Part shown: piece by piece, positions 4,118 to 53,306 of the stretch
How the letters are laid out: each line of letters starts with the position of its first letter
Position numbering within the stretch: position 1 is the first letter of the stretch
Notes under the pieces: generated by a model
The model's database searches: none
Told to the model about the DNA's origin: nothing
Seen by the model: the letters and a program-made list of their open reading frames with translations, nothing else
Source: Candidatus Kerfeldbacteria bacterium
GTDB taxonomy: Bacteria; Patescibacteriota; Patescibacteriia; UBA10025; JAHIVO01
Direction: 5' to 3'
Assembly: GCA_047946875.1 (NCBI GenBank)
Contig: CP181398.1
Coordinates: forward strand, 143,154-207,153
Length of the DNA: 64,000 nt
Translations under genes and position numbers: made by a program

Positions 4118-4237
4118 ACTGATACTGATGATATGTAATCATGCTTAGCTGTTGAAAATAATTATATTTTGCAATACATATCAGGTTTGTGTGTAAAAGT
4201 ATTTAGGCAATATTAATTATTCTATAATATTATATAA

Positions 4238-4264
4238 TTAGCACTCTTGACTTGAGAGTGCTAA
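4238..4264 (+). promoter_or_regulatory. CIRCE operator (HrcA binding site), with a TATAAT at 4223-4228 just upstream
   Basis: TTAGCACTC-ttgacttga-GAGTGCTAA is a perfect match to the CIRCE consensus TTAGCACTC-N9-GAGTGCTAA. It lies 27 bp upstream of the hrcA start. Confidence 0.95.
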
Positions 4265-4290
4265 TTGGATTATAATACTTATACAACTAT

Positions 4291-4998
4291 ATGAATGAAA
4301 GAAAAAGTGCCATTTTTGGGGCTATTATCAAAGAACATGTAACTAAAGGCAATACTGTTGCCTCAAAAGTGCTTGTGGATAAGTATGACTTTCAGCTCTC
4401 TTCAGCAACTATGCGTAATGAGATGGTAGAGCTTGAAAAAGATGGTTATATATTTCAGCCTCATACATCAGCAGGACGTATCCCTACAGAAAAAGGTTGG
4501 AAGTATTATATAGAAAATTTTATTCAGAATAAGCAGATAAGTAAGAAACACAAAGAATTAATGGATGTAATATTCGATGAAGGGGGAATGAATTTTGACA
4601 TTACTGTGAAGAAAGTTTCCAAAGGCTTGGCAGAGATTTCTAAGGATGCAGTATTTGTGGGATTTTCACACGATGATTTTTATTACACCGGCTTATCACA
4701 TTTATTCAAAAATCCTGAGTTTCAAAAACTAGATTTAGTACAGCATGTTTCAGAAGTAGTGGATCATCTTGGTGAAGTTATTACTGATATGTTTGATGAA
4801 GTAAGTGAATCAGAAACAGAGATTGTGCTAATTGGAAAAGAAAATCCATTTGGTGCAGAATGCAGTACGATTGTAACAAGTTATTCGAATGGTAAAGACA
4901 ATAAAGGTGTATTTGGAATCTTGGGGCCGATGAGGATGAATTATGAAGATAACATGGCTTTGATAAAATATGCAAAAGAATTATTTAATAATGTATAA
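4291..4998 (+). CDS. hrcA: Heat-inducible transcription repressor HrcA (short form)
   Basis: N-terminal wHTH with VSxATMRNEMxxLEKDGYIFQPHTSAGRIPTEKG, the HrcA signature. Sits directly downstream of CIRCE and upstream of grpE. Confidence 0.85.
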   Translation: MNERKSAIFGAIIKEHVTKGNTVASKVLVDKYDFQLSSATMRNEMVELEKDGYIFQPHTSAGRIPTEKGWKYYIENFIQNKQISKKHKELMDVIFDEGGMNFDITVKKVSKGLAEISKDAVFVGFSHDDFYYTGLSHLFKNPEFQKLDLVQHVSEVVDHLGEVITDMFDEVSESETEIVLIGKENPFGAECSTIVTSYSNGKDNKGVFGILGPMRMNYEDNMALIKYAKELFNNV

Positions 4999-5015
4999 CA
5001 AATAATATAATAACT

Positions 5016-5516
5016 ATGTCAGACGAAAAAAAAGACTTAGAAAAAAAAGATGTTAAACTAAAACTAACTGAACTAGAAAAAACTAAAGAAAAAATGGAAG
5101 AATATTTGAATGGGTGGAAAAGGGCAAAAGCAGATTACAGTAATCAAAAAAAAGAATTTGAAAGAAAAGAACAAGAGATTATACAGTTTGCCAATGCTAC
5201 GCTCATATTAGAAATTATGCCTATCTATGACAATTTCAAACTAGCTTGGAAGCATATACCTGAAGAGCATAAAAATGAAGATGAATGGCTAAAAGGAATC
5301 GAACATATTAAGAAACAGTTTGCTGATATGTTAAAAAGATTAGGGCTAGAAGAAATCCCTACAGTAGGGGAGAAGTTTGATCCAGAGCTACATGAAGCAG
5401 TCGGTACAGAAAAAGTTGAAGGTAAGAAGAGTGGAGAAATAGTTGAAGAAATTAAATCAGGTTATAAACTTTATAACAAAGTGCTTGAACCAGCTAAAGT
5501 AAAAACCGCAGAGTAA
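5016..5516 (+). CDS. grpE: Nucleotide exchange factor GrpE
   Basis: Has a coiled-coil N-terminus and the ...RKEQEIIQFANATLILEIMPIYDNFKLAW...GYKLYNKVLEPAKV GrpE fold motifs. Located in the hrcA-grpE-dnaK context. Confidence 0.9.
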   Translation: MSDEKKDLEKKDVKLKLTELEKTKEKMEEYLNGWKRAKADYSNQKKEFERKEQEIIQFANATLILEIMPIYDNFKLAWKHIPEEHKNEDEWLKGIEHIKKQFADMLKRLGLEEIPTVGEKFDPELHEAVGTEKVEGKKSGEIVEEIKSGYKLYNKVLEPAKVKTAE

Positions 5517-5523
5517 ATACACA

Positions 5524-5598
5524 CTTGTCATCCTGAACTTGATTCAGGATCTCTAGAAAAGATTAGGGTGAGATTCCGGATCAAGCCCGGAATGACAG
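5524..5598. repeat. GC-rich nested-hairpin intergenic repeat, TTGTCAT-box family, copy A
   Basis: cTTGTCATcctgaacttgattcaggatc...attccggatcaagcccggaATGACAg. The outer stem TGTCAT/ATGACA encloses two hairpins, cctgaa/ttcagg and attccgg/ccggaat. Immediately 3' of grpE. Confidence 0.6.
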
Positions 5599-5633
5599 AA
5601 AATAATATATAATAATTTTAAAAGAATAATAAT

Positions 5634-6083
5634 ATGGCAATAATGAGATGGCGACCTTCAATGGATCCAATAGATTTAGAAAGATTTTTTGAAGAAATGC
5701 CAAGGATGCAAGCAAAAAATAATTCATATACACCAGCTGTAGATATCTACCAAGATAAGGATAATGTCGTTGTAGAGACACCATTGGCTGGGGTAGATCC
5801 TGAGAAAGTAAATGTATCAGTGGAAGATGATGTATTAAAAATAGAAGGTAAATCAGAACATAGATCAGAAGTAGATGAAGATAACTATTATAGAAAAGAA
5901 GTACGACATGGTAGCTTTTATAGGGCAATAGCTCTACCTACCAGTGTAATAGCTGATAAAGCAGAGGCTAACTTCGAAAATGGAATGCTTAAAGTAATAA
6001 TCCCAAAAGCTGGTGAAGTTAAACCAAAAACAATCAAAGTAAATATAATTAAAAAAGATAAATCTAAAAAAATTCAGGCATAG
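5634..6083 (+). CDS. Small heat shock protein, Hsp20/alpha-crystallin family
   Basis: Alpha-crystallin domain AVDIYQDKDNVVVETPLAGVDPEKVNVSVEDDVLKIEGK...GSFYRAIALP. Confidence 0.9.
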   Translation: MAIMRWRPSMDPIDLERFFEEMPRMQAKNNSYTPAVDIYQDKDNVVVETPLAGVDPEKVNVSVEDDVLKIEGKSEHRSEVDEDNYYRKEVRHGSFYRAIALPTSVIADKAEANFENGMLKVIIPKAGEVKPKTIKVNIIKKDKSKKIQA

Positions 6084-6119
6084 CCTGATCCGGCTTTGCC
6101 GGAAATTAACAATATATAT

Positions 6120-6509
6120 ATGAAAATAATTGGAGGAAATAATATTCCACCACCAGGAGGTTCGCAAGGACCGCCAGGATCAGGGGGGAGATCAGGAAAA
6201 CCAGAACAGATAAAGATAGATGCCAAATGTACTATCTGTGGTAGTCTATATGACTTCGGTAAATTGGAAGTAATACAGGAAGAAGAAGGCGCAACATTGA
6301 TGTATATCAAATGTTCTGTCTGCCAAAGCGCCGCTCTATCGATAGTGGCTATTGGATCATTCGGGATCAAAGTATCGAGTGTAATCACAGATCTGGAAAA
6401 AGATGAAGTTATGCATTTTCAAGAAGAGAGATCAGTACAGAGTGAAGATGTTTTAGCTCTACATGAGGAGTTAGAAATTACAGATAATTTTTTAGAAGAG
6501 ATTAATTAA
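6120..6509 (+). CDS. Zinc-ribbon protein with a Gly/Pro-rich N-terminus, inserted in the heat-shock operon
   Basis: The ATG at 6120 follows GGAGG-poor AT-rich spacing. The track ORF starts at a TTG at 6096. Contains CTICGS...CSVCQS (CxxC-x23-CxxC) and an acidic C-terminus. Lies between hsp20 and dnaK. Confidence 0.6.
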   Translation: MKIIGGNNIPPPGGSQGPPGSGGRSGKPEQIKIDAKCTICGSLYDFGKLEVIQEEEGATLMYIKCSVCQSAALSIVAIGSFGIKVSSVITDLEKDEVMHFQEERSVQSEDVLALHEELEITDNFLEEIN

Positions 6510-6556
6510 AATATAATATAAATAAAATAATTTTATAAAAGAAAGGAATAAACAAA

Positions 6557-8533
6557 ATGAGTAAAATACTCGGAATTGACTTAGGTACTACTAACTCAGC
6601 TATGGCAATAATTGAGGGCGGAGAACCAAAAGTATTAGAAAATAAGGAGGGCAACAGAACTACACCGTCAGTGGTAGCTATTACCAAGACAGGAGAGCGT
6701 GTTGTTGGGCAGATTGCCAAAAGACAAGCAGTAACTAATCCAGAGAATACAATCTATTCTGTGAAAAGGTTGATTGGTCGTCATTGGAATGATGATGAAG
6801 TACAGCATGATGTAAAAACAATGCCTTACAAAATCGTTCAAGCAGGAGAAGGTCTTAAAGTGGCTATGAACGGTAAAGATCAAACTCCTCAGGAAGTTTC
6901 AGCAATGATTCTACAGAAGCTTAAGGCTGATGCAGAAGCTAAGTTGGGCGAGAAGATAGAAGAGGCAGTTATTACTGTGCCAGCTTATTTTGATGATGCA
7001 CAGCGCCAAGCTACCAAAGATGCTGGTGAGATTGCAGGTCTGAAAGTAAAACGTATTATCAATGAGCCAACCGCAGCTGCTCTAGCTTATGGTTTTGATA
7101 AGAAAAAAGATCAGCAAATTGCTGTTTATGATCTTGGTGGTGGTACTTTTGATATCTCTATCTTAGACGTAACCGCCGATACTGTTGAGGTTAAATCTAC
7201 CAATGGTGACACTCATCTTGGTGGTGATGATTTTGATAAGAAAATTATTGACTGGATGATAGATGAATTCAAGAAAGATCAAGGAATTGATTTATCCAAC
7301 GACAATATGGCTTTACAGAGGTTGAAAGAAGCAGCTGAGAAAGCCAAAGTAGAACTATCAACTGCTACAGACACAGAAATCAACTTACCATTCGTCACAA
7401 CTGACGATACTGGCCCTAAGCATATGGTTATGAAGATGACTCGTGCACAATTAGAAGAACTAGTTAGTGAACTTATCGAGCAAACTATGGAGCCAGTTAA
7501 GAAAGCATTGGAAGATGCTAAATTAAAAGCTTCAGACATCGAAGAAGTTATCATGGTCGGTGGTATGACTCGTATGCCAAAAGTATTGGAGACTGTAGAG
7601 AAATTCTTCGGCAAGAAACCTCACATCGGTGTTAATCCTGATGAGGTTGTAGCCTTGGGTGCAGCTGTACAAGCTGGTGTTATGCAAGGTGAAGTTAAAG
7701 ACGTCTTGTTATTAGACATTACTCCATTGACTCTAGGTATCGAGACATTAGGTAGTGTTTCTACTCCATTGATCGAGAAGAATACAACTATCCCTACTTC
7801 CAAATCTCAAATTTTCTCAACTGCTGCAGATAATCAAACATCCGTAGAAATCCACGTATTACAAGGTGAGAGATCTATGGCTGGTGATAACAAAACATTA
7901 GGTAGATTTATCTTAGCTGGTATTCCACCATCTCCTAGAGGTGTGCCACAAGTAGAGGTATCTTTCGATATCGATGCTAATGGTATCTTGAATGTGAAAG
8001 CCGTGGACAAAGCTTCTGGTAAAGAACAATCCATCACTATCACTGCTTCATCTGGTCTATCTAAAGATGAAGTAGAGAAGATGAAACAAGATGCCAAAGC
8101 TCATGAAGCAGAGGATGCTAAAAAGAAAGAAGGAGTTGAGACAAAAAACCAAGCAGAATCATTAGTCTTCACCGCAGAGAAGTCATTGAAAGATGCAGGT
8201 GATAAGGTTAAAGATGAAGTGAAAAAAGAAGTAAATGAAAAGATCGAAGCCCTTAAGAAGTTGAAAGATAGCGATGATTTATCAGCTATTAAGAAAGCTA
8301 CTGAGGAATTATCCGTAGCTATGCAACAGATTGGTGCTGCCATGAATGAGGCTCAGCAAAAGGCTGACGCTGCAAAGCCTAAGGAAGGTGATAAAAAAGA
8401 TCCTGAAACAAGTTCAGGAGGTAATGGTAAAGATAAAGGACCAGTAGATGCAGAGTTTGAAGATGTGAAGAAAGATGGAGAAAAGAAAGAGGATGATAAA
8501 AAGGAAGAAGAGAAAAAAGATGATAAAAAGTAA
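6557..8533 (+). CDS. dnaK: Chaperone DnaK (Hsp70)
   Basis: [17 protein letters not shown] and VGGMTRMP signatures. Lys/Glu-rich C-terminal tail. RBS AAAGGAA upstream. Confidence 0.97.
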
Positions 8534-17463: not shown

Positions 17464-18564
17464 ATGTCAAGTACTAGTAACCAACTTAATTATATGAGAG
17501 TAGAGAATAAAGAAGAAGAAAAAAAGATAGATAAATTTATACCCCCACAACCAATTGGTAAAGTTGCTACTTTGATTGGTCTAGTGGTAGCTAGTACAGC
17601 TCTTTTTTGGTTAGCATGGCATAACGCTATTACATCTGGTTTAAGTTTTGCCTTTAGTTGGGAAAATATATTATTGGTTCTTTCTACATTATTGGCAATG
17701 TGTTTAATGTTTACGATATTGGCAATGGCTGAAGTATTAGTAACGAAGAGAATACCTTTATTATTAATGGCAATTTTTTCTTCTGCTACTATGTTTCTTT
17801 TTTTCAAACCGTCTTTTTGGAGTATGGTAGGATTTTTATTAATGCTATTAGCATTCTTGGCATGGAGAAGAGAGATTAGACAAGATGAAAAAACTAGGGT
17901 AAAATTTGTACCACAAAAAATAATCGATAGTGGATTAAAGATGGCGGTCAGTTTGATATTATTAGCAGCTTGTTTCAATTTTTTTAGCTTCATGACAACA
18001 AGACCTAATGCAGAAATTGAAACTATGAATAGTTTGGTAAGTAATAGCACGGAGACTGTAGAAAGTGGCTTATTATTATATTATGGTGATAGGTATGACC
18101 CAGATATGGAGCTAGATACATTTATCAATAATATTAGTTCTTCAGTTGGTGATGCGATAATAGATGATAAGGTTAAGGTTGATACAGGCAATGAAGAGTT
18201 GGACAATGCTTTAGGTGATGCAATTACAGATAGTCTTGGAGTTGTACAACAGGAAGTAGTCGAAGAACTTAGGAATAGTTTTTTAGCAACGTTTAATATA
18301 GAAGCAACAGGTGATGAGAGTATGAATAGTATTATTGAAAAAATTGTACATGCAAATATTACAGAATTTGTTGATCCATATCTTGAGTTTGTACCGGCAT
18401 TATTAGCAGTCGGTTTGTTCTTTCTTCTTAATATATTTAATTTTATTTATAGAGAGTTAATTAAATGGTTTAGTTATCTATTGTTTCATATCTTTATTTG
18501 GATTAAGTTTATCCATATAAAGAAGATACAAATAGAAGCAGAAAAAATAGCATTATCTGAATAG
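17464..18564 (+). CDS. Hypothetical polytopic membrane protein
   Basis: 366 aa with several predicted TM helices flanking an acidic central domain. Confidence 0.6.
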
Positions 18565-18572
18565 TATACATT

Positions 18573-19703
18573 ATGGCAAATAAAGATTTATATGAAATTC
18601 TTGGAGTGGCTAAAGAAGCTAGTCAAGATGAAATAAAAAAAGCTTATAGAAAACTTGCTCATCAACATCATCCAGATAAATCTGGAGGTGATGAAGCTAA
18701 ATTTAAAGAGATTAATTCAGCTTATCAAGTGCTTAGTAATGAGCAGAAGCGCCAACAATATGATCAGTTTGGTCAGAATTTTAATCAAGCTGGTGGTGGG
18801 CAAGGAGGCCAAGGTGGTTTTGGTGGTGGGATGAATTGGGATGATTTCGCTCGTGCGTCTGGTGGTCAGCAGGGACCGTTTGGTCAAGGTGGTCAGGGAG
18901 CTGAGTATGATATGGGAGATATATTCGGAGATATTTTTGGTTTTGGTAAACGTGGTGGAGCAAGCTCTGGTGCCTCAGCACAAGGTGGTGATATACAGGC
19001 TGAAATGCAAATTGAATTCAAAGAAGCTGCTTTCGGAGCAGAAAAGGTAATAGATTTATATAAGCATGCCACTTGTTCACATTGTAAGGGGAATGGAGCA
19101 GAGCCAGGTTCAAAAATTGATACTTGTAAAAATTGCAATGGGCAGGGTAAGGTAGAGAGAGTGCAGCAAACTGTTTTAGGTGCATTTCGTACGGCAACTG
19201 TGTGTCCTGAATGTCGTGGTGAAGGTAAAAAATATGACAAGAAATGTAAAGAGTGTAGCGGTGACGGAAGAGTAAAAGAATCTGAAAAAATCAAAGTAAA
19301 AATTCCAGCTGGGATAGCAGAAGGTGAGACGATACGATTATCTGGAAAAGGGGAAGTAGGTCTAAAAGGAGCACCAGCGGGTGATCTTTATGTTACGATG
19401 AGAGTAGTTAATGATCCAAACTTTAATAGAGAGGGTGATGACATTTTGTCAGAAGTTAATATCAGTATTTCCCAAGCTACTTTAGGAGATAAAATAAATA
19501 TAATGACTTTGGATGGCGAAGTGACTTTAAAAGTTCCATCTGGTACTCAATCAGGTAAAGTGTTTAGTCTTAAAGGAAAAGGGACTCATCATCTACGTAT
19601 ACGTGGACGTGGCGATCATTTAGTAACAGTGAATATTCAAATACCTACAAAATTAAGTAGAGACCAAAAGAAGTTATTTGAACAATTATCCAAGTTAGAT
19701 TAA
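18573..19703 (+). CDS. dnaJ: Chaperone DnaJ
   Basis: J-domain with HPD ([12 protein letters not shown]), a G/F-rich region, four CxxCxGxG zinc-finger repeats and the C-terminal substrate-binding domains. Confidence 0.95.
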
Positions 19704-20407: not shown

Positions 20408-21022
20408 ATGATACCAGTTGCTTGGGCAGCAGAAACCGCAGAGGTTGCTGTCGAATCTGCAAATATAATGCAGAACATCGATTGGACCAGACCGACATGG
20501 GATTTATTCATAATCTTATTTTTTATCGTAGCTGCATTTTTATATGGATTGTCATTAGGTCGTGATAGAATAATTGTTATTTTGGTTAGTATTTACATGT
20601 CTCTAGCTATTATCGAGCACGCTCCATTTCTCAATTCAGAGTGGTTGCATGATTGGATTAACGGTGTTGTAAATCAATTTTTTGTATTTCAAATATCAGC
20701 ATTCTTAATACTGTTTATTGTTTTATTTTTGGTGATTACGCGTTCCGCTCTGATGAAGACGATAGCCTCTTCAGATACTGCTGGTCCATGGTGGCAGGTT
20801 TTATTATATAGTACTTTGCATGTTGGGTTGCTTGTTAGTATAGTATTATCATATCTACCAGCTGATACTGTGGAGCAGGTATTAGCGCCATTAACAAAAC
20901 AAGTCTTTACAACGGAGGTGGCTCAATCAGTCTGGATATTATCACCAGTGGTAGCAATGATAGCGTTCAAAGGTACTGGCTCTAGAAAACGTAAGAAAAG
21001 AGAAATAGCAGACGAAGAATAA
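20408..21022 (+). CDS. Hypothetical membrane protein
   Basis: 204 aa with 4-5 predicted TM helices. Confidence 0.6.
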   Translation: MIPVAWAAETAEVAVESANIMQNIDWTRPTWDLFIILFFIVAAFLYGLSLGRDRIIVILVSIYMSLAIIEHAPFLNSEWLHDWINGVVNQFFVFQISAFLILFIVLFLVITRSALMKTIASSDTAGPWWQVLLYSTLHVGLLVSIVLSYLPADTVEQVLAPLTKQVFTTEVAQSVWILSPVVAMIAFKGTGSRKRKKREIADEE

Positions 21023-21084
21023 AAAAATAGGCTATGAAATAAGCCTAGATAATTTTGCTGGACGTAATAATATTACGTTTTTTT
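21021..21084. terminator. Bidirectional terminator pair between convergent genes
   Basis: AGGCT-atgaaata-AGCCT is preceded by A7, making a minus-strand terminator. ACGTAATA-ATATTACGT is followed by T7, making a plus-strand terminator. Confidence 0.65.
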
Positions 21085-21085
21085 A

Positions 21086-21958
21086 TTAATTTAGTAGTAA
21101 TATAAATGCAATCCCGCCAAGCATGATAGCAGCTCCGAATATTCTATATTTAATATTAGTTTCTTTAAAATAATAAGCACCTAGGACAATGCTACCAATA
21201 ATTAAGCCACCTCTTTTAATAGCGATGGCATAGGAGACGAATGTAGTTTCTAAACCTATTAAAAATAATATATTAGCTACAGCTGTGATGATAGCGGCAG
21301 AGATAAGAAGAGGGAGGTGACCAGTAATCATTTTCTTATAATGGTGACGATGTCTCATACCCATCCAGATGCTCATAAAGATTGCTTCTATCAGAACGGT
21401 TGCGAATAAATAAAATTCTATTGAACTTTTTTGCATGGCCATTTTAGCGAAGTTAGCATTGAAACTCCATATTAAAGCAATTATAATAATATAAAGGCTA
21501 GCCTTATGTGAAAAAATATTTTTTATTCTTGCCATTAATCCATTCCTAAGCTCCTCACCTTTTAATAATATAGCACCAGCAACAACTAATAGAATACCGA
21601 TGATACCATATGTATTTGGTAGTTCTCCAAGAAAGAAATATGAAGTAGCAATCAAGAATACTGGAGTGAATGAAAGCAGGGGAAGGGTTGCGGATATTGG
21701 AGCAAGTTTTTCACTTTTTATTAGTAATATATTTGTTATGATAAGCAAAGGAACATCGATAGCAATAATCAACCAGAAAGTTGGATCAATTTCAGGTAAT
21801 CCATTTTTCCATAAAAAAATTGCATAAATTGGTACAGAAAAAGTAGCAACCGCCCAAAAAATAATATTGACAGTGTAACTTTTTGTTGCTTTTTTCTTCA
21901 GCACATCTACGGATGGGTATAGTAGTGAAGCGATAATTATTAATATAAATCCACTCAT
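21086..21958 (-). CDS. EamA/DMT-superfamily transporter (10 TM)
   Basis: 290 aa with about 10 TM helices in two repeated halves, typical of EamA. Confidence 0.6.
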   Translation of the reverse strand: MSGFILIIIASLLYPSVDVLKKKATKSYTVNIIFWAVATFSVPIYAIFLWKNGLPEIDPTFWLIIAIDVPLLIITNILLIKSEKLAPISATLPLLSFTPVFLIATSYFFLGELPNTYGIIGILLVVAGAILLKGEELRNGLMARIKNIFSHKASLYIIIIALIWSFNANFAKMAMQKSSIEFYLFATVLIEAIFMSIWMGMRHRHHYKKMITGHLPLLISAAIITAVANILFLIGLETTFVSYAIAIKRGGLIIGSIVLGAYYFKETNIKYRIFGAAIMLGGIAFILLLN

Positions 21959-22017
21959 TTTTTGAATTATTAAAAAGGTTAGTAACTAAGATTAGTCGCT
22001 ATTTTTTTATTTGTTAA

Positions 22018-22971
22018 TTAGTTCGTTTTGTTGATATTTATTCCAACTTCTTTCCATTCGGACATTACTTCATCAATATCAGATGAATTAACGGTAGTAT
22101 GTTCAGCATCTTTATTGCTTATGTTTGCTAGTTTTACTTTTGCGGCGGCTTCATCCATTAGATCAATAGCTTTATCGGGAAAAACCCTGTCATGCATGAA
22201 TTCTCCAGAAAGTTTCACACACCGAGCTAGTGCATCATCACTAATTTTTACTTGGTGATGATTTTCATATTTTGATCTTATGCCTGCTAATATTTTGATA
22301 GTATTTTCAGCACTTGGTTCGTTGACCATGACTGGTTGGAATCTTCTTTCTAAAGTTGAATCATGTTCAACATATTTTTTGTATTCTTCTATTGTAGTTG
22401 CTCCTACCATTTGGAGTTCACCACGTGCTAAGGCAGGTTTGAGAATATCGGCAGCGTCAATTGCGCCGGTTGCTTCACCAGCTTCAGCAAGTGAATGCAT
22501 TTCATCAATAAATAATATAATTGTTCTTTTGGCCGCGATTATTTCGTCTACTAATGATTTCAATCTCTTTTCAAATTCCCCTCGATATTTAGTACCAGCA
22601 ACCATTCCACTTAAATCCAAAGATAAAACTTTTTTGTTTGCTAGATGGGGGGTAACATCACCGGTAGCTATTTTGTTCGCTAATCCTTCAACTATTGATG
22701 TTTTGCCTACGCCAGACTTTCCGATGATTACAGGATTATTTTTAGTTCGACGAGAGAGTATTTGGATTAATCTCTCAATTTCATGTTCACGACCAATCAC
22801 TGGATCAAGTTTGTTATTGATAGCTAGGTTAGTAAGATCTTTTGAATACATTTGTAGTACATTCATGCCGGATGTATTTTTTTTACTTTCTTTGTATAAC
22901 CAAAAAATAATTACACCCAGTACTATGAGTATAAGTAACAATGATGAAGATGTTGCGCTTAGGTTGAACAT
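22018..22971 (-). CDS. Membrane-anchored Clp/Hsp100-type AAA+ ATPase, D1 domain only
   Basis: N-terminal TM (LLLILIVLGVIIFWLY), then LDPVIGREHEIERLIQILSRRTKNNPVIIGKSGVGKTSIVEGLANKI (ClpB/ClpC NBD1 Walker A), Walker B ILFIDEMH, and a sensor/arginine region. There is no N-domain, M-domain or D2. Confidence 0.8.
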   Translation of the reverse strand: MFNLSATSSSLLLILIVLGVIIFWLYKESKKNTSGMNVLQMYSKDLTNLAINNKLDPVIGREHEIERLIQILSRRTKNNPVIIGKSGVGKTSIVEGLANKIATGDVTPHLANKKVLSLDLSGMVAGTKYRGEFEKRLKSLVDEIIAAKRTIILFIDEMHSLAEAGEATGAIDAADILKPALARGELQMVGATTIEEYKKYVEHDSTLERRFQPVMVNEPSAENTIKILAGIRSKYENHHQVKISDDALARCVKLSGEFMHDRVFPDKAIDLMDEAAAKVKLANISNKDAEHTTVNSSDIDEVMSEWKEVGININKTN

Positions 22972-22983
22972 AATGATTTTATT

Positions 22984-23925
22984 TTATAACCACTTTCTTC
23001 TTTTAAAAAAACTAAATACTAATATTGCTACAAAAATCTCAAGAACTAGTAAGGCTACAAAACCAAACTCCCATTCTATAATAGGAGTGCCTGGAGCACC
23101 AATACCTAAGAGGGTTGCGACAAGAGTTAGAACAAATATTACTACAGAAATAACTGTAAAAGTTTTCATGATATGGTTTAGGCGGAATGAAATTAATGAT
23201 TCATTTGTATCATTAACTGCTTCGATAGATTCTTTGAAACTATCTAATGTATCCCAAATTTCTTTAACTTTATCAATTAAACTATTGAAGTATATATTTG
23301 ATTTACTAACATCAAAAAATTGTAATTGTTTATTTGCTGCTTCTAATTTCTTAATAATATTTTTATGTGCTTGCATTGATCTACGGAAATTAACAACATT
23401 TCTACGGGAGGCTAATATTTTACCTACCATGTCTTTTTCTTTGCCACGAAATATTAATTTTTCAGTTTTATGAATATCAACACTAATATGATCAAGCATT
23501 GGGAAACAATGACCAACTAATTTATTTAGCATTTCGTATAGCACTATTATTACATTGTTGGAAAGAAATTCATTTTTTTCATTATGATGAACGGATTTTT
23601 TTAGATGGTTAAAATGACTTACTATAGTATCTAACTTTTTATCATGAATGGTTATTATATAATGTTTACTGATAAAAAAATCTATTTCTACTGCAGTAAT
23701 TTCACCAGTCTTTCTATTATATAGGGGATAAAGCATAACTAAAAATATATGATCTTTGTAAACATCAATTTTAGGTCTTTGCCCATTAGTAATACAATCC
23801 TCAAGATTAATGGGATGAAAGTTGAAATTCTTTTTTAGAAATTTAATTTCTGGGCCATCACTTTTTCTGACGTCCGTTACATCAATCCATCGAATATTTT
23901 TTGCCCTAATTTCATTTATTGGCAT
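22984..23925 (-). CDS. CorA-family divalent cation channel-like protein lacking the GMN motif
   Basis: N-terminal cytoplasmic domain of about 250 aa plus two C-terminal TM helices. RLNHIMKTFTVISVVIFVLTLVATLLGIGAPG aligns to the CorA LNxxMKxLTxxSxIFxPLTxIxGxYGMN region, but GMN is replaced. 12 bp upstream of the AAA+ gene on the same strand. Confidence 0.65.
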   Translation of the reverse strand: MPINEIRAKNIRWIDVTDVRKSDGPEIKFLKKNFNFHPINLEDCITNGQRPKIDVYKDHIFLVMLYPLYNRKTGEITAVEIDFFISKHYIITIHDKKLDTIVSHFNHLKKSVHHNEKNEFLSNNVIIVLYEMLNKLVGHCFPMLDHISVDIHKTEKLIFRGKEKDMVGKILASRRNVVNFRRSMQAHKNIIKKLEAANKQLQFFDVSKSNIYFNSLIDKVKEIWDTLDSFKESIEAVNDTNESLISFRLNHIMKTFTVISVVIFVLTLVATLLGIGAPGTPIIEWEFGFVALLVLEIFVAILVFSFFKRRKWL

Positions 23926-24058
23926 GATTTTTATTTTTTGTTTTAGTATTTATATTGTAGCATACTTTAGCGATTTTTGCAAGTTATATGCTTTAAATAA
24001 AAAAGAGACGAATATGTATTCATATACGTCTCTTCTACTCAATTTTATTATGCTATCT

Positions 24059-24568
24059 CTATCTTCTACTGTGGTACACTGGCATTGTTGCCAGTACCGG
24101 ACCATATACATCGTCAGTTAAGTCAATAACTCGACCTGTATTATAGTCGAAACTTTGGTTGATCCTTCTGAACCAACCTCGCACGAAGATTGTCCTCTCT
24201 CGTTGATCTTTTTTGTTTTTGATGAAAGCGTGTCCCCAGCTTCTTTTGGCTCCGAATTTCTTGGCACCAAAAGGTAAATTTACCCAGTTGAGCCCATCCA
24301 ATGAATACTCAGCGCTAGAAAGCTCCCAATCTCTGGGTGCTTTATAAACTATGTATAGTTTCATTCCTCTACCTTGTATAGGGTAGGCACTGAGTAGATG
24401 GAGCCTAGTATTCCATTGATTAGATGGATATACCTTGAAAGCATCTTTAGAAGGGGGTTTGTTTTCAGGTCTTTCTAATACCTGAATATTTACAAAACGT
24501 CCACAGCTTTGGCAAATCAGCATAATAAAAATAACAAAGAGCATTAGTAGCGTATTATGGAGTTTCAT
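24059..24568 (-). CDS. Hypothetical secreted protein (signal peptide)
   Basis: MKLHNTLLMLFVIFIMLICQSCG, i.e. a signal peptide. 169 aa. Confidence 0.55.
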   Translation of the reverse strand: MKLHNTLLMLFVIFIMLICQSCGRFVNIQVLERPENKPPSKDAFKVYPSNQWNTRLHLLSAYPIQGRGMKLYIVYKAPRDWELSSAEYSLDGLNWVNLPFGAKKFGAKRSWGHAFIKNKKDQRERTIFVRGWFRRINQSFDYNTGRVIDLTDDVYGPVLATMPVYHSRR

Positions 24569-24741
24569 GTCACTCCTCCTTCTATATGTATAACAATAGT
24601 TTCAGATTAAACAGACATTTAAATATATCATTGATATAAGGATTTGTCAATAGTAAGCATACTAACATTGATTAATAAAATTTTACCTTGATTTTTCATC
24701 AAAAATATGATATAATAATTATATAAATGAATTAATTACTA

Positions 24742-25314
24742 TTGTTTATGCCAAACCCAATAAATAAGCCTGATTTATCTAGTCCGGATACTAAAAGGGG
24801 TGCAACTTCTGAAATTGAGGATATTTTTGAGCATGAAGATGCTAACAAAGTAGAACAACAACCCGAGCCAGTTGAAGTAAAAGTGACTTTACCTGAAGTT
24901 AGTAAAGAAATTACTCCAGAAAAGAAAGTTGAAAAAGAACAACAAAAAGAAAATGAAATCAATCAGATGCAACAAGCCCCTCCTCCCGTACAACCGGACC
25001 CAGTAGTAGATAAGACAACTGTTTCTGAAGAAAGAAGCGTTGATTTGATGAAAATTGAAAATATATTATCTGATCATTTAGATGAACTTTTTTTACAGAT
25101 GACACCGCAGGAACAAATGGCATTTAAGAAAAAAGGAGAAGAGACGGCAGAAAAAGTTAATGAATTATTAAAAGAAACTAAAATTAAAGTAAAAGAAATT
25201 TTAGTATTAATTAAAGAATGGTTGAAAATAATACCTGGAGTAAATAAATTTTTTATTGAACAAGAGGCAAAAATTAAAACTGATAGATTACTAAATCTTA
25301 GAGAAAGAGAATAA
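24742..25314 (+). CDS. Hypothetical acidic/coiled-coil protein
   Basis: 190 aa, Glu/Lys/Gln/Pro-rich, located upstream of the large ATPase. Confidence 0.5.
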   Translation: MFMPNPINKPDLSSPDTKRGATSEIEDIFEHEDANKVEQQPEPVEVKVTLPEVSKEITPEKKVEKEQQKENEINQMQQAPPPVQPDPVVDKTTVSEERSVDLMKIENILSDHLDELFLQMTPQEQMAFKKKGEETAEKVNELLKETKIKVKEILVLIKEWLKIIPGVNKFFIEQEAKIKTDRLLNLRERE

Positions 25315-25364
25315 AATATTTAGTATTCATATATTTAAGTGGTATCAATTATAGTTAAAAAATT

Positions 25365-27869
25365 ATGAATGTATTTGCAAATTTGATGGAAAATTCTGCT
25401 TTTCCAATTATTTTAGTTGGAATTTCTGTTTTAATTGTTGCGATAAGTTCTTTTTTAATTATTCGTCGTAACATGAGAAGTCAAAAAAAATTACCTAATG
25501 CATTGCAAAAGGTAATGTTATTGATCACTCTACCAAAAGAGTCAGAGATAAAAGAAGGAGAAAATAAACAAGAGTCTGTTGAAGAAATGTTGGTTGAGGC
25601 AGAAGCATTTTTAAATGCATTAGGCGGTATGAAGGCTCAACGTGGCGCTGCTAGTATAGTTGGAGGAAGAACTGATAATTTTTCATTTGAGATTGTTGCA
25701 TATGGAGGATTAATTTCATTTTATGTTGTTATTCCTAGATACTTACGTGATTATATGGAACAACATATTAGTGCTCAATATCCAGATGCGCAAATTGAAG
25801 AAACGGAAGAATTCAATTTATTTAGTCCCCAAAGTAAAATTGCAGCTACTACTCTAACATTTAAAAAGCAGTACATATTTCCCATAAGAACATATCGTGA
25901 GTTAGATGTTGATCCATTAAGTTCTCTTACTAATGTTTTATCAAAAATCGCTCCAGACGAAGGTGCGGTTATTCAGTATGTTGCCAGATCAGCAAAAGCA
26001 GAATGGAGAAATTGGGGAGCTCGTGTTGCAAAAGATATTCACAATGGTAGGGCGGTAAAAGAAGCTGTCGGAAGGAATGGTTTTTTGGGATTTCTTTTTG
26101 GATTATATAGAACTTTTGTACCTGAGAAAAAAAATGAATTAGACAAACAACATCAGTTATCAGCACGTGATGAGGAAATTGTAAAAAGTTTGGAAAACAA
26201 GGTTAGTAAGGCAGGGTTAGATGTAAATATTAGAATTATCGTTTCAACAAAGTCGCAAGAAAGATCACAAAAATATTTAAAAGATATTGTTGATTCTTTT
26301 AGTCAGTATTCTTCTTTTGAATATGGTAATGGTTTCGTGAGAAATGATCCGTATTTCAAAAAAGACCAATTAATATTGGACTATATTTATCGTACATTTA
26401 ATAAGAAAAAATTGTTGGTACTTAATACAGAAGAGATGGCGAGTTTATTTCACTTTCCTTTAGTTACCACAGAAACTCCTAATATTCGTTGGTTAGTAGC
26501 ACGTAAAGCACCAGCCCCAACCAATCTACCTAAAGAAGGATTGGTATTAGGTAAGAATCTTTATCGTGGCGAAGAGCATGTCGTTCGTATTAAACCTAAG
26601 GATCGACAGAGGCATGTATATGTAATAGGTAAATCTGGTGTTGGTAAATCTGTATTATTATCGAATATGATAATCCAAGATATTATTAATGGTGAGGGAG
26701 TCGGTGTTATTGATCCACATGGAGATTTGATTAATGATATATTAGCTCATATTCCTAAAGAGCGAGCTGAAGATGTTATACATTTCAATCCATCAGATCT
26801 TGATAGACCTATGGGTTTGAATATGTTAGAGGTATCTAGTCCAGATCAAAAAGATTTTGCGGTACAAGAAATGATTTCTATTTTTTATAAATTATTTCCA
26901 CCGGAGATGATTGGGCCGATGTTTGAACATAACATGAGGAATGTTATGTTAACTTTAATGGAAGATGAAGAAAATCCTGGTACTATTACAGATATTCCAA
27001 GGATGTTTACAGATCCTGCTTTTCAAAAATATAAATTATCCAAAGTAAAAGATCATGTTGTTAGAGCTTTTTGGGAACAGGAGATGGCTAAGACTTCTGA
27101 TTTTCATAAATCAGAGATGCTAGGATATTTGATCTCAAAAGTTGGTCGTTTTGTAGAGAATAGTATGATGAGAAATATTATTGGTCAGCCAAAGTCTGGA
27201 TTCAATTTTGAAGAGGTGATGAATAACAAAAAGATATTATTGGTTAATTTATCAAAAGGTACAACTGGCGAAGTAAATAGTAGTTTGTTAGGTTTAATAT
27301 TAGTATCTAAGCTTCAGATGGCTGCAATGAAAAGAGCATCGATGGCAGAAGAAGATAGAAAAGATTTTTACTTATATATTGATGAGTTTCAAAATTTTGT
27401 TACAGACAGTATCGCTACAATTTTATCTGAAGCTAGAAAATATCGTTTGGATTTAACTATTGCACATCAATATATTGGACAGCTACTTCAAGATAATGGG
27501 GATTCTAAGATTAAAGATGCTGTATTTGGTAATGTTGGTACTATGTTGGCTTTTCGTGTAGGCGTAGATGATGCTGAAGTATTAGCAAAAGAATTTGATC
27601 CAGTATTTAATGAATTTGATGCTATTAATGTAGAGATGTATACAGCTAATGTAAAATTATTAATTGATAATACTACTTCCAAGCCATTCAATATGATGAC
27701 TTATCCGCCACAACCTGGTAATCCAGAAATAGCTAAAAAAATAATCGAATTATCTAGATTGAAGTATGGTACTGATCGTAAAGTCATCGAAGCCGCAATG
27801 GCGGAAGTATCTAAGTTGGGGAATACTAAACCAGCACAAGGTCAGGCGACTGGTGAGAAAAGTATGTAA
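25365..27869 (+). CDS. FtsK/HerA/TraD-superfamily P-loop ATPase with N-terminal TM (T4SS coupling-protein / DUF87-like)
   Basis: Walker A VYVIGKSGVGKSVLLSNM...IDPHGDL. Walker B FYLYIDEFQNF. The 400-aa N-terminal region is of unknown function. Confidence 0.65.
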   Translation: MNVFANLMENSAFPIILVGISVLIVAISSFLIIRRNMRSQKKLPNALQKVMLLITLPKESEIKEGENKQESVEEMLVEAEAFLNALGGMKAQRGAASIVGGRTDNFSFEIVAYGGLISFYVVIPRYLRDYMEQHISAQYPDAQIEETEEFNLFSPQSKIAATTLTFKKQYIFPIRTYRELDVDPLSSLTNVLSKIAPDEGAVIQYVARSAKAEWRNWGARVAKDIHNGRAVKEAVGRNGFLGFLFGLYRTFVPEKKNELDKQHQLSARDEEIVKSLENKVSKAGLDVNIRIIVSTKSQERSQKYLKDIVDSFSQYSSFEYGNGFVRNDPYFKKDQLILDYIYRTFNKKKLLVLNTEEMASLFHFPLVTTETPNIRWLVARKAPAPTNLPKEGLVLGKNLYRGEEHVVRIKPKDRQRHVYVIGKSGVGKSVLLSNMIIQDIINGEGVGVIDPHGDLINDILAHIPKERAEDVIHFNPSDLDRPMGLNMLEVSSPDQKDFAVQEMISIFYKLFPPEMIGPMFEHNMRNVMLTLMEDEENPGTITDIPRMFTDPAFQKYKLSKVKDHVVRAFWEQEMAKTSDFHKSEMLGYLISKVGRFVENSMMRNIIGQPKSGFNFEEVMNNKKILLVNLSKGTTGEVNSSLLGLILVSKLQMAAMKRASMAEEDRKDFYLYIDEFQNFVTDSIATILSEARKYRLDLTIAHQYIGQLLQDNGDSKIKDAVFGNVGTMLAFRVGVDDAEVLAKEFDPVFNEFDAINVEMYTANVKLLIDNTTSKPFNMMTYPPQPGNPEIAKKIIELSRLKYGTDRKVIEAAMAEVSKLGNTKPAQGQATGEKSM

Positions 27870-40888: not shown

Positions 40889-43609
40889 ATGAAGAAAAAA
40901 TCTGTATTAAGTATTATAATCATCCTATTGATACTAGGAATATTTGTTCCAATTTTAGTTGGTTTGTCAGCTGATTGGCTTTGGTTTTCAGCTCAGGGGT
41001 TTGCTACCATCTTCAGTACAATATTATTAACCAAGATCATCTTAGGGGTAATAATAGGTTTAGTTACTTTTGGTATTATTTATCTTAATTTTAATATTGC
41101 TCATCGCCGTACCAAAGATCAGCCTGTTATTCTCAGTAATCTACGTCCTGGTTTAGATATATCCAGAATTATATACAGATTATTATTGCCAATATCATTA
41201 GTGATAGGAATATTGACTGGTATAGTTGGATCTGGTTATTGGGAAGTAGTACAACAATTTATTCATAGTGTAAGTTTTGATGCTGTTGATCCTTTGTTTG
41301 GACGTGATATTTCATTTTATTTTTTCACTTTGCCAGCTATAAAGATGTTGATAGGATTTTTGTTTTGGATAACAATTGTCTCAATATTAGGAGCGTCTAT
41401 TCAATATTTGGTTAAAGGATTAATGACTATCAGAGGCAAGAGGATCGAAACAGCTCGCATAGCCAAAAATCATCTTTCTGTTTTGATGTCAATATTTTTC
41501 TTAATTATGGCTGGACATGTATATTTTAATAGCATGACTAATTTATTATATTCTAATACGGGTCCTTTTGTTGGTGCAAATTATTCTGATGTTTATGCTA
41601 CTTTACCTATACAATGGGGACTACTTGGAATTGCTTTGTTTATCGCAATTATTTTTCTTGTTACCCTCCTCAAGCCAATCAAGCGGTTAGTACCTTCTAT
41701 GATAATAATTTATATTTTGGTTTCTATTTTAGGTGGAGTATATGCATCAATAATTCAGAAGACAGTAGTATTACCTAATGAATTAGTAAAAGAGACTCCA
41801 TATATAGAAAGGAATATTTTTGCAACTAGAGCTTCATTTGGATTGGATCAGGTAGTTAAGCGTGAACTAGGTAATGAGGAAACAACATTGACCAGTGAAG
41901 ACATAAAAAATAATGAATTAACTATTAAAAATATTAGGTTGTGGGATAGGAAGCCTCTGTTAGATACTTTTGGTCAGATTCAAGAAATTCGAACTTATTA
42001 TGATTTTGTTTCTATTGATAATGATCGCTATACAATAGATGATGAATATCGTCAGATTATGGTTTCGCCTCGTGAGTTAAATACTGCTAGTTTACCATCT
42101 CGTACTTTTATTAATGAGCGATTGGTCTTCACACACGGTTATGGTTTAGCCTTAGGTCCAGTCAACGAGGTAACCAAAGAAGGTTTACCGTTATTATTTG
42201 TAAAAGATCTACCACCAGTCTCAAGTACTGAATCTATTAGTGTGGATAAGCCAGAGATATATTTCGGGGAGCTTTCTTCGGATTATGTTTTTGTAAATAC
42301 AGGAGCCGATGAATTCAACTATCCATCTGGTGATGAAAACGTATTCACTAATTATGAAGGGGAAGGTGGAGTTGCTCTAGATTCCTTCTTAAAGAAAGCG
42401 CTATTCGCTGTGAATTTAAATTCATTCAAGATATTTCTATCCAATGATATTAATAATGATAGTCGTGTCTTGTTACATAGGAATATTACTGATCGAGTAG
42501 AAAAAGTAATGCCATTCCTAGAATACGATGGTGATCCTTATCTTGTTATTACTGATGATGGGGGATTGAAGTGGATTTATGATGCTTATACTATTAGCAA
42601 CGATTATCCTTATGCTAATTCCGTTACAGCGATTACTACCAATAGTGAAGTTACTTCAGCACTCTATACAACCAAGATTAATTATATTCGTAATTCAGTA
42701 AAAGTTGTGATTGATGCTTATAGTGGTGAGATGAAGTTCTATATAGCTAATGAGCAGGATCCAATTATTCAAACTTACGCAAATATTTTTCCTGATACTT
42801 TCGAATCTTTGGATACTATGTCTGATGATCTTAGATCGCATATTCGCTATCCAGAAGATATTTTCAAATATCAGACAGAGATTTATTCTACTTATCATAT
42901 GGAACAACCTCAGATTTTTTATAACAAGGAAGATAAATGGGAAGTGCCACGTATTAGTGAGGATCGAGCCGATCCAATGATGCGTCATATGATTATGAAG
43001 TTGCCGGCTGAGGAACAAGAAGAGTTTATCTTGATGCTACCTTATACTCCTCGTAGCAAAGACAATTTGGCAGCTTGGATGGTAGCTAGGTCTGATGGAA
43101 ATAACTATGGCGAGTTGGTTGCTTATAGCTTCCCCAAGCAGAAATTGATTTTTGGTCCGAAACAGATAGTTAATAGGATTAATCAAGATGCTGATATTTC
43201 TAGGCAGATATCTCTTTGGGATCAACGTGGGTCAGAAGTTAACCACGGTAATCTATTGGTTATTCCTATCGAAGAATCATTGATTTATGTACAGCCATTA
43301 TACTTGAGAGCAGAAGGTGGTAAGATCCCAGAATTGAAACGAGTAATAGTAGCTTATGAAAATCAGATAGCTATGGCTGAGACTCTTGGTGGAGCGCTGG
43401 ATATTATTTTTAGTGGCGTCGTCGCAGCACCGACTACTGATGATACTATTGATACTTCAGTGGATACGGAAGTAGTTACATCAGCTGATCTTATTATCCA
43501 AGCCAATACTCATTACCAAGCAGCTATAAATGCGCAACAGCGTGGTGACTGGGCGACTTATGGTCGTGAGATAGAAGCTTTGGGAAATGTGTTGGATAAA
43601 TTGAAATAA
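40889..43609 (+). CDS. UPF0182-family large membrane protein
   Basis: 906 aa. N-terminal region of about 7 TM helices followed by a large extracytoplasmic domain. The size and topology match UPF0182. Confidence 0.6.
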   Translation: MKKKSVLSIIIILLILGIFVPILVGLSADWLWFSAQGFATIFSTILLTKIILGVIIGLVTFGIIYLNFNIAHRRTKDQPVILSNLRPGLDISRIIYRLLLPISLVIGILTGIVGSGYWEVVQQFIHSVSFDAVDPLFGRDISFYFFTLPAIKMLIGFLFWITIVSILGASIQYLVKGLMTIRGKRIETARIAKNHLSVLMSIFFLIMAGHVYFNSMTNLLYSNTGPFVGANYSDVYATLPIQWGLLGIALFIAIIFLVTLLKPIKRLVPSMIIIYILVSILGGVYASIIQKTVVLPNELVKETPYIERNIFATRASFGLDQVVKRELGNEETTLTSEDIKNNELTIKNIRLWDRKPLLDTFGQIQEIRTYYDFVSIDNDRYTIDDEYRQIMVSPRELNTASLPSRTFINERLVFTHGYGLALGPVNEVTKEGLPLLFVKDLPPVSSTESISVDKPEIYFGELSSDYVFVNTGADEFNYPSGDENVFTNYEGEGGVALDSFLKKALFAVNLNSFKIFLSNDINNDSRVLLHRNITDRVEKVMPFLEYDGDPYLVITDDGGLKWIYDAYTISNDYPYANSVTAITTNSEVTSALYTTKINYIRNSVKVVIDAYSGEMKFYIANEQDPIIQTYANIFPDTFESLDTMSDDLRSHIRYPEDIFKYQTEIYSTYHMEQPQIFYNKEDKWEVPRISEDRADPMMRHMIMKLPAEEQEEFILMLPYTPRSKDNLAAWMVARSDGNNYGELVAYSFPKQKLIFGPKQIVNRINQDADISRQISLWDQRGSEVNHGNLLVIPIEESLIYVQPLYLRAEGGKIPELKRVIVAYENQIAMAETLGGALDIIFSGVVAAPTTDDTIDTSVDTEVVTSADLIIQANTHYQAAINAQQRGDWATYGREIEALGNVLDKLK

Positions 43610-50344: not shown

Positions 50345-50352
50345 ATAAATAT

Positions 50353-51342: not shown

Positions 51343-51354
51343 CAATATATTAAT

Positions 51355-52884: not shown

Positions 52885-52952
52885 CATATTAGTTGACTTT
52901 GCATTATTGATAATGTTAGGCTATATTAAGATAATAATTAATATATAAAAAT

Positions 52953-53306
52953 ATGCCAGGTGAATTAAGAGAAATAAGAGAAAGTGTAGAAAAGGCTGAA
53001 AAGCCTAAGAAAGAAATTGAAATGATGGCAGATTCCGCAAAAAATGATTTGTGGGTAGAAGTAAGCCAAGGAGAAGTAAGTTCTGCTTCGATATTGGATG
53101 GGAAGGATGGATTCACTGATGAGAGCAGAGAAGTAATGAATGCACAGATTATGCAAATCAGAGAATTGTTTAACCAAGCTGTAGAAAAACTCGGTGATGG
53201 TGAAGGAGAATCGGAAGATGTTGGTGACGGTCTATTAAAAGGATTAGAAAGAGGTTATGTAGAAATGCTAGAAAAAAAGATATCTGATTTAGAATTAGTA
53301 CTATAA
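52953..53306 (+). CDS. Hypothetical acidic protein
   Basis: 117-aa Glu-rich ORF. Confidence 0.5.
   Translation: MPGELREIRESVEKAEKPKKEIEMMADSAKNDLWVEVSQGEVSSASILDGKDGFTDESREVMNAQIMQIRELFNQAVEKLGDGEGESEDVGDGLLKGLERGYVEMLEKKISDLELVL

Follow-up and report, generated by a model that had tools for sequence, protein, structure and literature searches.

A membrane-anchored, D1-only Clp/Hsp100 ATPase encoded directly behind a CorA-like protein without the GMN motif in Patescibacteria

Class-1 Hsp100 proteins are two-ring soluble machines, and the IGF/IGL-type loop with which Clp ATPases dock onto ClpP lies in the second ring, D2. Torsins represent another format: they originate from a D2-like module, depend on TM (transmembrane) cofactors, lack the arginine finger and are luminal. 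Here we describe a locus of Candidatus Kerfeldbacteria in which a Clp-type D1 module carries its own TM helix and is encoded next to a CorA-family protein. The window, i.e., the whole stretch analysed, comprises 64,000 nucleotides of contig CP181398.1 (assembly GCA_047946875.1, positions 143,154 to 207,153 of the forward strand); all coordinates below refer to it unless a related locus is named. On its minus strand, an open reading frame (ORF) for a CorA-like protein of 313 residues (22984-23925) is followed by an ORF for the D1-only ATPase of 317 residues (22018-22971). The spacer from the stop of the first gene to the start of the second, read directly from the sequence, is 12 bp long (22972-22983, AATAAAATCATT, minus strand) and contains no terminator and no obvious Shine-Dalgarno sequence. 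Positions, strand and spacing are exactly those given in an earlier note made from the DNA letters alone. An identical D1-only protein is also encoded on an 84-kb contig of assembly GCA_008633325.1. Searches of the literature found no paper on TM-anchored D1-only Clp proteins or on a CorA-Clp pairing, and both families are conserved but undescribed there.

The ATPase module is closely related to the first ring of ClpC. Residues 37-286 are about 60% identical to residues 161-409 of B. subtilis ClpC (E=5e-92), and the top PDB sequence matches are all Clp/Hsp100 chains. With ClpC, ClpB and ClpA it shares the large and small AAA+ subdomains, identical Walker A and B motifs, sensor-1, the double arginine finger, the KYRGEFE pore loop and the sensor-2 region. 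In a family alignment of 52 sequences, Walker A (GKSGVGKT, 22699-22722, minus strand) is invariant, as is the stretch K128-E134 in D1 pore loop 1, the substrate-gripping tyrosine loop (GTKYRGEFE, 22570-22596, minus strand). Walker B (FIDEMH), sensor-1 (GATT), the arginine fingers (ERRF) and the sensor-2 region (RVFPDKAID) are all present, and the catalytic and pore-loop motifs are invariant or nearly so among the 52 members. The arginine-finger and sensor residues, which the earlier note had singled out for checking, are thus in place.

The remainder of a class-1 protein is missing. The NCBIfam models for ClpB, ClpV and ClpA match the D1 portion alone (positions 147-402 of 853 in ClpB), and Clp models score 278-395 bits against cutoffs of 885-1900. 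Clp_N (PF02861) has no match in the protein, whose residues 1-35 form a TM helix and a linker. The M-domain is absent as well, with about 25 residues from 'DEAAAKVKL' to the linker motif, and the chain terminates in the element 'EVMSEW', which is equivalent to the D1-D2 linker ('VVSxWTG') in full-length Clp proteins. Clp_N, M-domain and AAA_2/D2 were found neither in the protein nor in the rest of the window nor in about 35 related D1-only loci, and full-length ClpC used in tblastn against the window matches D1 only. A split ClpC with its D2 encoded nearby was also considered; it is rejected, as tblastn and phmmer searches with the ClpC N-domain, M-domain and D2 were negative in the window and in the D1-only loci. 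The protein falls outside the class-1 definition because D2 is absent. It has a TM anchor instead of an N-domain and no D2 ring, hence neither the ClpP-binding loop nor the main motor ring of ClpB/ClpC. Without D2 there is no ClpP-docking loop, so D1-only would not itself be part of a Clp protease, and without the M-domain it has no DnaK or MecA control site.

The anchor is a hydrophobic helix (SSSLLLILIVLGVIIFWLYK, 22891-22950, minus strand) followed by the basic residues KESKKN; the topology is probably N-out, with the ATPase in the cytoplasm. The AlphaFold2 model (mean predicted local distance difference test score, pLDDT, 82) shows a helix at residues 6-32, then the large and small AAA+ subdomains. 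A single N-terminal TM helix joined to D1, without N-domain, M-domain or D2, is also what the earlier note had read from the translation.

The same note had called standalone membrane-tethered D1 modules unusual. This holds against characterised biology, but not among Patescibacteria, where they form a large conserved family present in at least 33 species-level genomes. The best 120 of more than 8000 Clp-like matches are, without exception, TM-anchored D1-only proteins of 303-351 residues from Patescibacteria (the named sources being Kerfeldbacteria, Nomurabacteria, Buchananbacteria and generic Patescibacteria). All 120 keep Walker A, Walker B and the pore loop, and 113 the strict ERRF pattern. 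The TM helix exceeds a hydrophobicity cutoff of 1.6 in 114 of them, while the remaining six still have a plausible one, and the motif 'WLY(K/R)EN' often follows it. When a longer relative served as the query, further proteins of 370-460 residues came up, labelled Doudnabacteria, Uhrbacteria and Parcubacteria, in which a coiled coil of 60-70 residues, similar to a short ClpC M-domain, separates D1 from the identical terminal linker motif. The simplest history is that a ClpC-type ancestor lost D2 and exchanged its N-domain for a TM anchor, and that the M-domain was lost later in the Kerfeldbacteria-like branch.

Very high identity to ClpC D1 is also what would be expected if D1-only were a fragment of a disrupted clpC or clpB gene, a pseudogene or an assembly artefact. 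We consider this extremely improbable: all 120 best homologues have the same length and architecture, on contigs of up to 1.18 Mb, the ratio of non-synonymous to synonymous substitution rates (dN/dS) between close pairs is 0.03-0.05, the new TM helix with its 'WLY(K/R)EN' motif is conserved, and no D2 remnant lies downstream in any locus. Some odd proteins did appear in a search of 1.84 billion proteins. Its top-scoring tandem-D1 proteins, P0350 and P0352, contain an internally duplicated D1 and are probably assembly or gene-call artefacts, and the high-scoring matches of odd length, considered as possible CorA-D1 fusions, are duplicated or chimeric Clp fragments.

In its design, D1-only resembles Msp1/ATAD1 and FtsH, with an N-terminal TM helix, a short linker and a single AAA+ module with an aromatic residue in the pore loop. 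The entry pore probably faces the membrane as well, which by analogy would imply extraction or unfolding of membrane proteins. The likeness is one of design and not of descent, and the analogy is functional only: D1-only belongs to the Hsp100 D1 clade, not to the classic/meiotic or FtsH clade, and it has no M41 protease domain as in FtsH. Like the torsins, it is a single Clp/Hsp100-derived AAA+ protein at the membrane, tied genetically or functionally to membrane-protein partners; however, it is derived from D1, keeps both arginine fingers and is cytoplasmic. We suggest that D1-only would form a hexameric single ring held at the cytoplasmic face of the membrane by its six N-terminal anchors. 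The N-terminus of Clp proteins lies on the substrate-entry face of D1, and with only about ten residues between the TM helix and D1 the entry pore would therefore face the bilayer, like that of FtsH and Msp1. Driven by ATP, such a ring could draw in membrane proteins by their cytoplasmic tails or loops and thereby extract, unfold or remodel them.

The partner protein (22984-23925, minus strand) has the complete CorA/MIT fold: an alpha/beta domain at the N-terminus is followed by a long stalk helix, and two TM helices and a basic tail make up the C-terminal end. It matches Pfam CorA over residues 10-309 (E=1.8e-51) and T. maritima (Tm) CorA in phmmer (E=5e-32), and the top Foldseek matches of its AlphaFold2 model (pLDDT 90) are all TmCorA chains, with TM-scores of 0.7-0.79. 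The alignment to TmCorA has no gaps across TM1, the loop and TM2, and 'YGMNFEYMPEL' of TmCorA corresponds to 'LGIGAPGTPII'. The GMN motif is thus replaced in register by GIG and not shifted: translation and alignment place the codons of G274-I275-G276 (23098-23106, minus strand) at the position of Tm G312-M313-N314. The protein also differs from TmCorA in that the TM1 proline of 'MPL' is gone ('FMPL' is aligned with 'IFVL'), the gate residue L294 is a phenylalanine and 'MP' after the loop has become 'TP'. The basic tail (KRRKWL) and a cytoplasmic aspartate equivalent to Tm D89 are retained, and the equivalent of the sensor residue Tm D253 is N or S in GMN-less and GMN-bearing clades alike. The NCBIfam corA equivalog model gives 169 bits, below its cutoff of 200.75. 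ZntB is ruled out, with 47.7 bits against a cutoff of 292 and no ZntB chain among the PDB sequence matches. The GMN replacement described in the earlier note therefore stands, and the alternative it had named, a routine ZntB/CorA with an intact motif at a shifted position, was not found.

GxN is absent from the 67 nearest homologues (at least 46% identity), which show 23 different triplets at this position, including AAR, GIG, SIN, STN and SIG. The TM1 proline (P303) is mostly lost in this set, L294 is F or Y and 'MP' after the loop is 'TP', and the end of the stalk and TM1 ('TNESLISFRLNxIMKTxTxISV') are nearly invariant. The next 52 homologues are ordinary CorA proteins of Patescibacteria, all with G(M/V)N; the window protein is 41-48% identical to such GMN-bearing proteins and shares the nearly invariant stalk end and TM1 with them. 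Three independent pairs of GMN-less proteins have dN/dS values of 0.021, 0.041 and 0.084, as low as those of D1-only and CysS in the same genomes, and the CorA-like protein is therefore functional. Judged from these residues, it is very probably no Mg2+-selective channel. In a neighbour-joining tree, there is one large GMN-less clade, in which every member tested is linked to D1-only, and independent degenerations occur elsewhere.

Some partners have degenerated further. Directly upstream of D1-only, the related loci L012 (5162-5848), L017 (5100-5828), L024 (5146-5964) and L028 (5036-5767) encode shortened CorA-like proteins of 228-272 residues, consisting of the N-terminal alpha/beta domain and one C-terminal TM helix, i.e., tail-anchored. 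They evolve fast and their reading frames are intact; positions 1-134 of the CorA hidden Markov model (HMM) match them with E-values of 6e-9 to 3e-16. In L016, a full-length CorA-like gene is split into two ORFs (210-656 and 690-1136) by a frameshift or a sequencing error.

A role of a CorA-family protein in defence has a precedent, as such proteins act as membrane effectors in type III CRISPR systems (PMC10600005). Like the window protein, the B. fragilis protein, activated by SAM-AMP, is a membrane protein of the CorA family with probably no role in Mg2+ uptake, and its gene is paired with that of a cytoplasmic enzyme. The earlier note had raised the possibility that the CorA-like protein is a defence effector, which would make the pair an anti-phage or abortive-infection module with a membrane-disrupting component. 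This is very unlikely. In the CRISPR proteins, only the C-terminal ~172 residues are CorA-like, and they are encoded together with cas10 and NrN, DEDD or SAM-lyase genes (PMC10600005), whereas the window protein is related to CorA over its full length, at about 45% identity to the ordinary CorA proteins of Patescibacteria. The PADLOC CRISPR-CorA model gives only E=0.006 (13.5 bits), and the matches of D1-only to PADLOC models are weak, generic AAA matches (IetA 1e-6, TRIP13 4e-6). No cas, NrN, DEDD or SAM-lyase genes lie near the pair, as the note had also remarked for CRISPR components; the neighbours are EamA, lipoprotein, VirD4-like, HAD and DnaJ genes. Further, the locus is part of the core syntenic chromosome beside cysS, dnaJ and dus and not a variable island, and its GC content (0.31 in the CorA-like/D1 region) is the same as that of its surroundings. 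The defence and pseudogene readings are effectively excluded.

The membrane-anchored D1 motor with intact motifs and the full-fold, GMN-less CorA are tightly linked on the same strand, and the conservation of this neighbourhood, proposed as a check in the earlier note, was found. Scanning GTDB with each species represented by a single genome gave about 35 D1-only loci as well as full-length ClpC genes of other phyla, and 33 of the D1-only loci include enough upstream sequence to be informative. A CorA-like gene lies directly upstream of D1-only on the same strand in 20 of these 33 genomes. Seen from the CorA side, a metagenome scan gave ten loci, but only L091 combined a close CorA relative with enough downstream DNA; linkage from this side was therefore taken from exact-protein look-ups. 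Three GMN-less proteins were chosen for which a contig in common with one of the listed D1 matches was not obvious, and all three are followed by D1-only. At least 18 further pairs of CorA and D1 matches have longest contigs of identical size. In loci without an inserted ORF, the two genes are 1-19 nt apart (the window, L003, L013, L014, L018, L022, L024, L042 and L095), and the pair persists despite differing flanks in L020, L023, L025 and L099.

Where the gap between CorA and D1 reaches 140 nt or more in the relatives, it contains a small ORF, which is absent from this window. The encoded proteins have an N-terminal tail of about 20 residues rich in T, K and Q, followed by a single TM helix, and are either short (46-82 residues) or long (147-172 residues) with a Big_13/Ig-like ectodomain. 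Long forms are found in L002 (5553-5996), L004 (5554-5997) and L100 (4451-4897). Short forms are found in L099 (4444-4596), L023 (5837-5983), L025 (5840-5992), L017 (5818-5964), L028 (5774-5914), L012 (5856-5996), L010 (1435-1626), L101 (1411-1620) and L062 (5649-5936); many of them apparently fall under the usual length for gene calling. With an HMM trained on 15 of these ORFs, they are found beside D1-only in about 21 loci. One lies beside D1-only where CorA is missing in L062, and weak matches of this kind occur in L006, L009 and L021, while in L095 and L042 the ORF is downstream of D1-only. An N-in topology is indicated by the positive charge of the N-terminal tail and by the Ig domain, which is of extracellular type, so that the tail would face the cytoplasmic ATPase. 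The small protein is likely a further partner or substrate of D1-only, and in the mechanism proposed here it would be an accessory or client where present.

Taken as a whole package, we favour the reading that D1-only is a membrane-proximal, protease-independent unfoldase and that the channel-impaired CorA is its lineage-specific accessory; we hold this tentatively, as somewhat short of an even chance. The CorA-like protein would have lost its role as a Mg2+-selective channel and become a co-transcribed accessory of the ATPase in its sub-lineage, as a membrane scaffold, a regulator or sensor, or a dedicated client. Of the dedicated membrane complex proposed in the earlier note, the two-gene unit is real and co-conserved, while the complex itself is an extrapolation from adjacency within a synteny block.

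The most serious competitor is that the two proteins have unrelated jobs. The CorA-like one would conduct or transport ions with altered or relaxed selectivity, D1-only would be a general membrane-proximal chaperone, and the adjacency would be inherited as part of a CorA-[D1]-CysS-Dus order. We regard this as quite possible, if on the doubtful side. Much of what weighs against the favoured reading speaks for this one, including the extent of the synteny, which spans the block. Among 40 D1-only loci, the neighbours include CysS in 27, the CorA-like gene in 24, a 204-residue membrane protein in 22, a partner of about 180 residues of a VirD4-like ATPase in 21, the VirD4-like ATPase and DnaJ in 19 each and Dus in 14. 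CysS, which adjoins D1 more often than CorA does, is thus no less constant a neighbour. In 13 of the 33 informative genomes, D1-only has no CorA nearby and is accompanied by other neighbours, such as bPH_2, or by none. Further, the canonical CorA of other Patescibacteria adjoins Dus without D1, and Dus and CysS lie downstream of D1 in many loci, so the gene order could be inherited and not selected. The older order would accordingly have been CorA-...-Dus, with room in it for D1 and CysS.

The filter evidence is also two-sided. GMN or GTN is retained in some D1-adjacent CorA proteins (L013, L022, L042 and L095), and the motif has decayed without a D1 neighbour on the metagenome contigs L084 (4001-4918, QID) and L088 (3424-4326, DID). 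Sporadic variants (STN, SMN, GMS and AIR) occur in other CorA lineages (P0199, P0208, P0214, P0220, P0226, P0229 and P0232), and the CorA proteins of Patescibacteria seem to be generally prone to lose the filter. Within the GMN-less set, the variants that keep the asparagine (SIN, STN, SMN and AIN) could still coordinate cations. The proposed mechanism has weak points of its own. The hexameric state and the ATPase activity of D1-only are deduced from its motifs, and the D1 rings of ClpB and Hsp104 assemble weakly alone. A CorA pentamer with its large cytoplasmic funnel would not be coaxial with a hexamer pressed to the membrane, so no simple docking geometry suggests itself. A functional link between the two proteins is thus putative, and the linkage is weaker than the earlier note had supposed.

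Several observations nevertheless speak against unrelated jobs. The spacers of 1-19 nt and the proximity of start and stop recur in divergent lineages, whereas D1 and CysS look farther apart on the ORF maps, with gaps of roughly 50-330 nt, and the pair outlasts a change of both flanks. The truncated one-TM CorA remnants, which are clearly no channels, are still immediately upstream of D1. All examined members of the large GMN-less clade are D1-linked, and the 23 filter triplets, together with the loss of P303 and the aromatic gate, argue against a conserved selectivity filter.

Another possibility is that D1-only regulates the abundance or gating of a CorA-like channel that still functions, for example by extracting it at ion excess. 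The FtsH-dependent turnover of Mg2+ transport proteins in enterobacteria offers an analogue. The pairs that look oldest still have GMN or GTN (L013, L022, L042 and L095), the KRRKWL tail and the D89-equivalent aspartate are retained, and the D1 pore would lie at the membrane surface where the C-terminus of CorA emerges. We nevertheless think such regulation improbable, as most partners have lost the filter along with the TM1 proline and the gate residue, the D253 equivalent is N or S in both clades, and D1-only is conserved where CorA is absent. Nor is there an RNA element of the kind expected for such control: an Rfam search of 21000-25400 at E<=1 gave no match, so a Mg2+ riboswitch or other RNA leader upstream of the pair has no support.

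The favoured reading, an unfoldase with an accessory CorA, can be extended to a lineage-specific machine in which a ClpC-derived tethered unfoldase would be a bacterial counterpart of Msp1 with dedicated membrane partners, which in this full form we rate as unlikely. Here the channel-dead CorA pentamer would serve as scaffold or sensor, and the T/K-rich tail of the small TM protein would be a handle for the pore loops, with envelope proteins being remodelled or extracted. Such a machine, with a VirD4-like coupling ATPase encoded next door, could serve the cell-surface apparatus of these epibionts. A conserved membrane-anchored D1-only protein with intact motor residues, found in many lineages of Patescibacteria, would be a new operating format for Hsp100 proteins and also a candidate route for membrane-protein quality control in these minimal genomes. 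Similarly, a CorA evolving no faster than cysS despite the loss of filter, TM1 proline and gate would exemplify a channel fold recruited elsewhere. Together with the small TM protein, the pair is a compact two-to-three-gene system that can be tested in vitro, and such entry points are rare for organisms not culturable alone.

The extent of the transcription unit can be outlined from sequence signals. Upstream of the CorA-like gene lies a gene for a predicted lipoprotein of 169 residues (24059-24568, minus strand) with its own promoter-like site at 24650-24622; relatives have a fast-evolving lipoprotein gene at this position. It is ended by an intrinsic-terminator-like hairpin (GAGACGTATATG/CATATTCGTCTC followed by a U-run, 23999-24032, minus strand), whose predicted fold of -18.7 kcal/mol (z=-5.5) was equalled in stability by none of 200 shuffles. 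The lipoprotein gene is thus a separate transcript, and the CorA-like/D1 unit therefore begins a new one. A sigma-70-like promoter candidate (TTGCAA-17-TACAAT with an extended TG, 23954-23982, minus strand) lies 29 nt 5' of the CorA-like start; it is a consensus match only, and the number of such matches in the region does not exceed the expectation from shuffles. An EamA-family transporter gene (21086-21958, minus strand, Pfam EamA 1.5e-20) follows 59 nt 3' of D1-only. The window scan and folding show no strong terminator between CorA-like, D1-only and EamA genes, so EamA may be co-transcribed with D1-only; it is a variable neighbour, present in five of 40 related loci. A bidirectional terminator-like hairpin (21028-21047) closes both the minus-strand unit and the convergent plus-strand unit. 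An antisense ORF of 397 residues (22280-23473, plus strand) overlaps both genes of the pair; no gene call in a relative supports it, and in DNA this rich in A and T the frame is most likely open by chance.

Heat-shock co-regulation of the pair was considered and is rejected. A perfect CIRCE (controlling inverted repeat of chaperone expression) operator (TTAGCACTC-N9-GAGTGCTAA, 4238-4264) lies upstream of the hrcA-grpE-hsp20-(137-residue ORF)-dnaK cluster (4291-8533), and none was found near the pair even when three mismatches were allowed. The dnaJ gene (18573-19703, plus strand) is separate from this cluster. It is preceded, with a gap of 8 bp, by a gene for a multi-TM protein of 366 residues and of unknown family (17464-18564, plus strand), which recurs in L006, and is followed by a HAD hydrolase gene and then the gene of the 204-residue membrane protein (20408-21022, plus strand). 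The dnaJ gene and the latter recur near D1-only in about 20 relatives. Together, the dnaJ, 366-residue and 204-residue genes would make up a membrane-flavoured proteostasis neighbourhood.

Divergent from the lipoprotein gene are genes for a 190-residue protein (24742-25314, plus strand) and a VirD4/TraD-like coupling ATPase of 834 residues (25365-27869, plus strand) with DUF8128 and T4SS-DNA_transf domains. In about 20 related genomes, this gene pair likewise adjoins the D1-only locus, and it may have a functional tie to D1-only. A different membrane-protein partner occupies the upstream position in L097, from another Patescibacteria genome: a D1-only protein of 385 residues with a coiled coil (4001-5158) begins 3 nt after a bPH_2 membrane protein gene (3425-3997).

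Some taxon labels among the relatives need caution. L042, labelled Saccharibacteria, was considered as an independent occurrence of the pair and rejected: a close relative, P0242 (labelled Doudnabacteria), has the same VirD4-CorA-D1-CysS-Dus synteny, so L042 is of no independent origin and the taxon label of this third-party annotation (TPA) assembly is doubtful. The metagenome-assembled genomes of L003, L005, L010-L014, L019-L021, L024, L026, L029 and L034, also TPA assemblies, are titled 'uncultured Gammaproteobacteria bacterium'. Their gene content and synteny, like those of L042, are of the Patescibacteria type, and the labels look wrong.

Farther along, the window encodes a UPF0182-family membrane protein of 906 residues (40889-43609, plus strand, Pfam E=5e-280), which is large, conserved and of unknown function. 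A purine interconversion cluster (49280-57789) contains genes for IMP dehydrogenase, adenosine deaminase, GMP synthase, adenylosuccinate synthetase and a PurB-like Lyase_1 protein.

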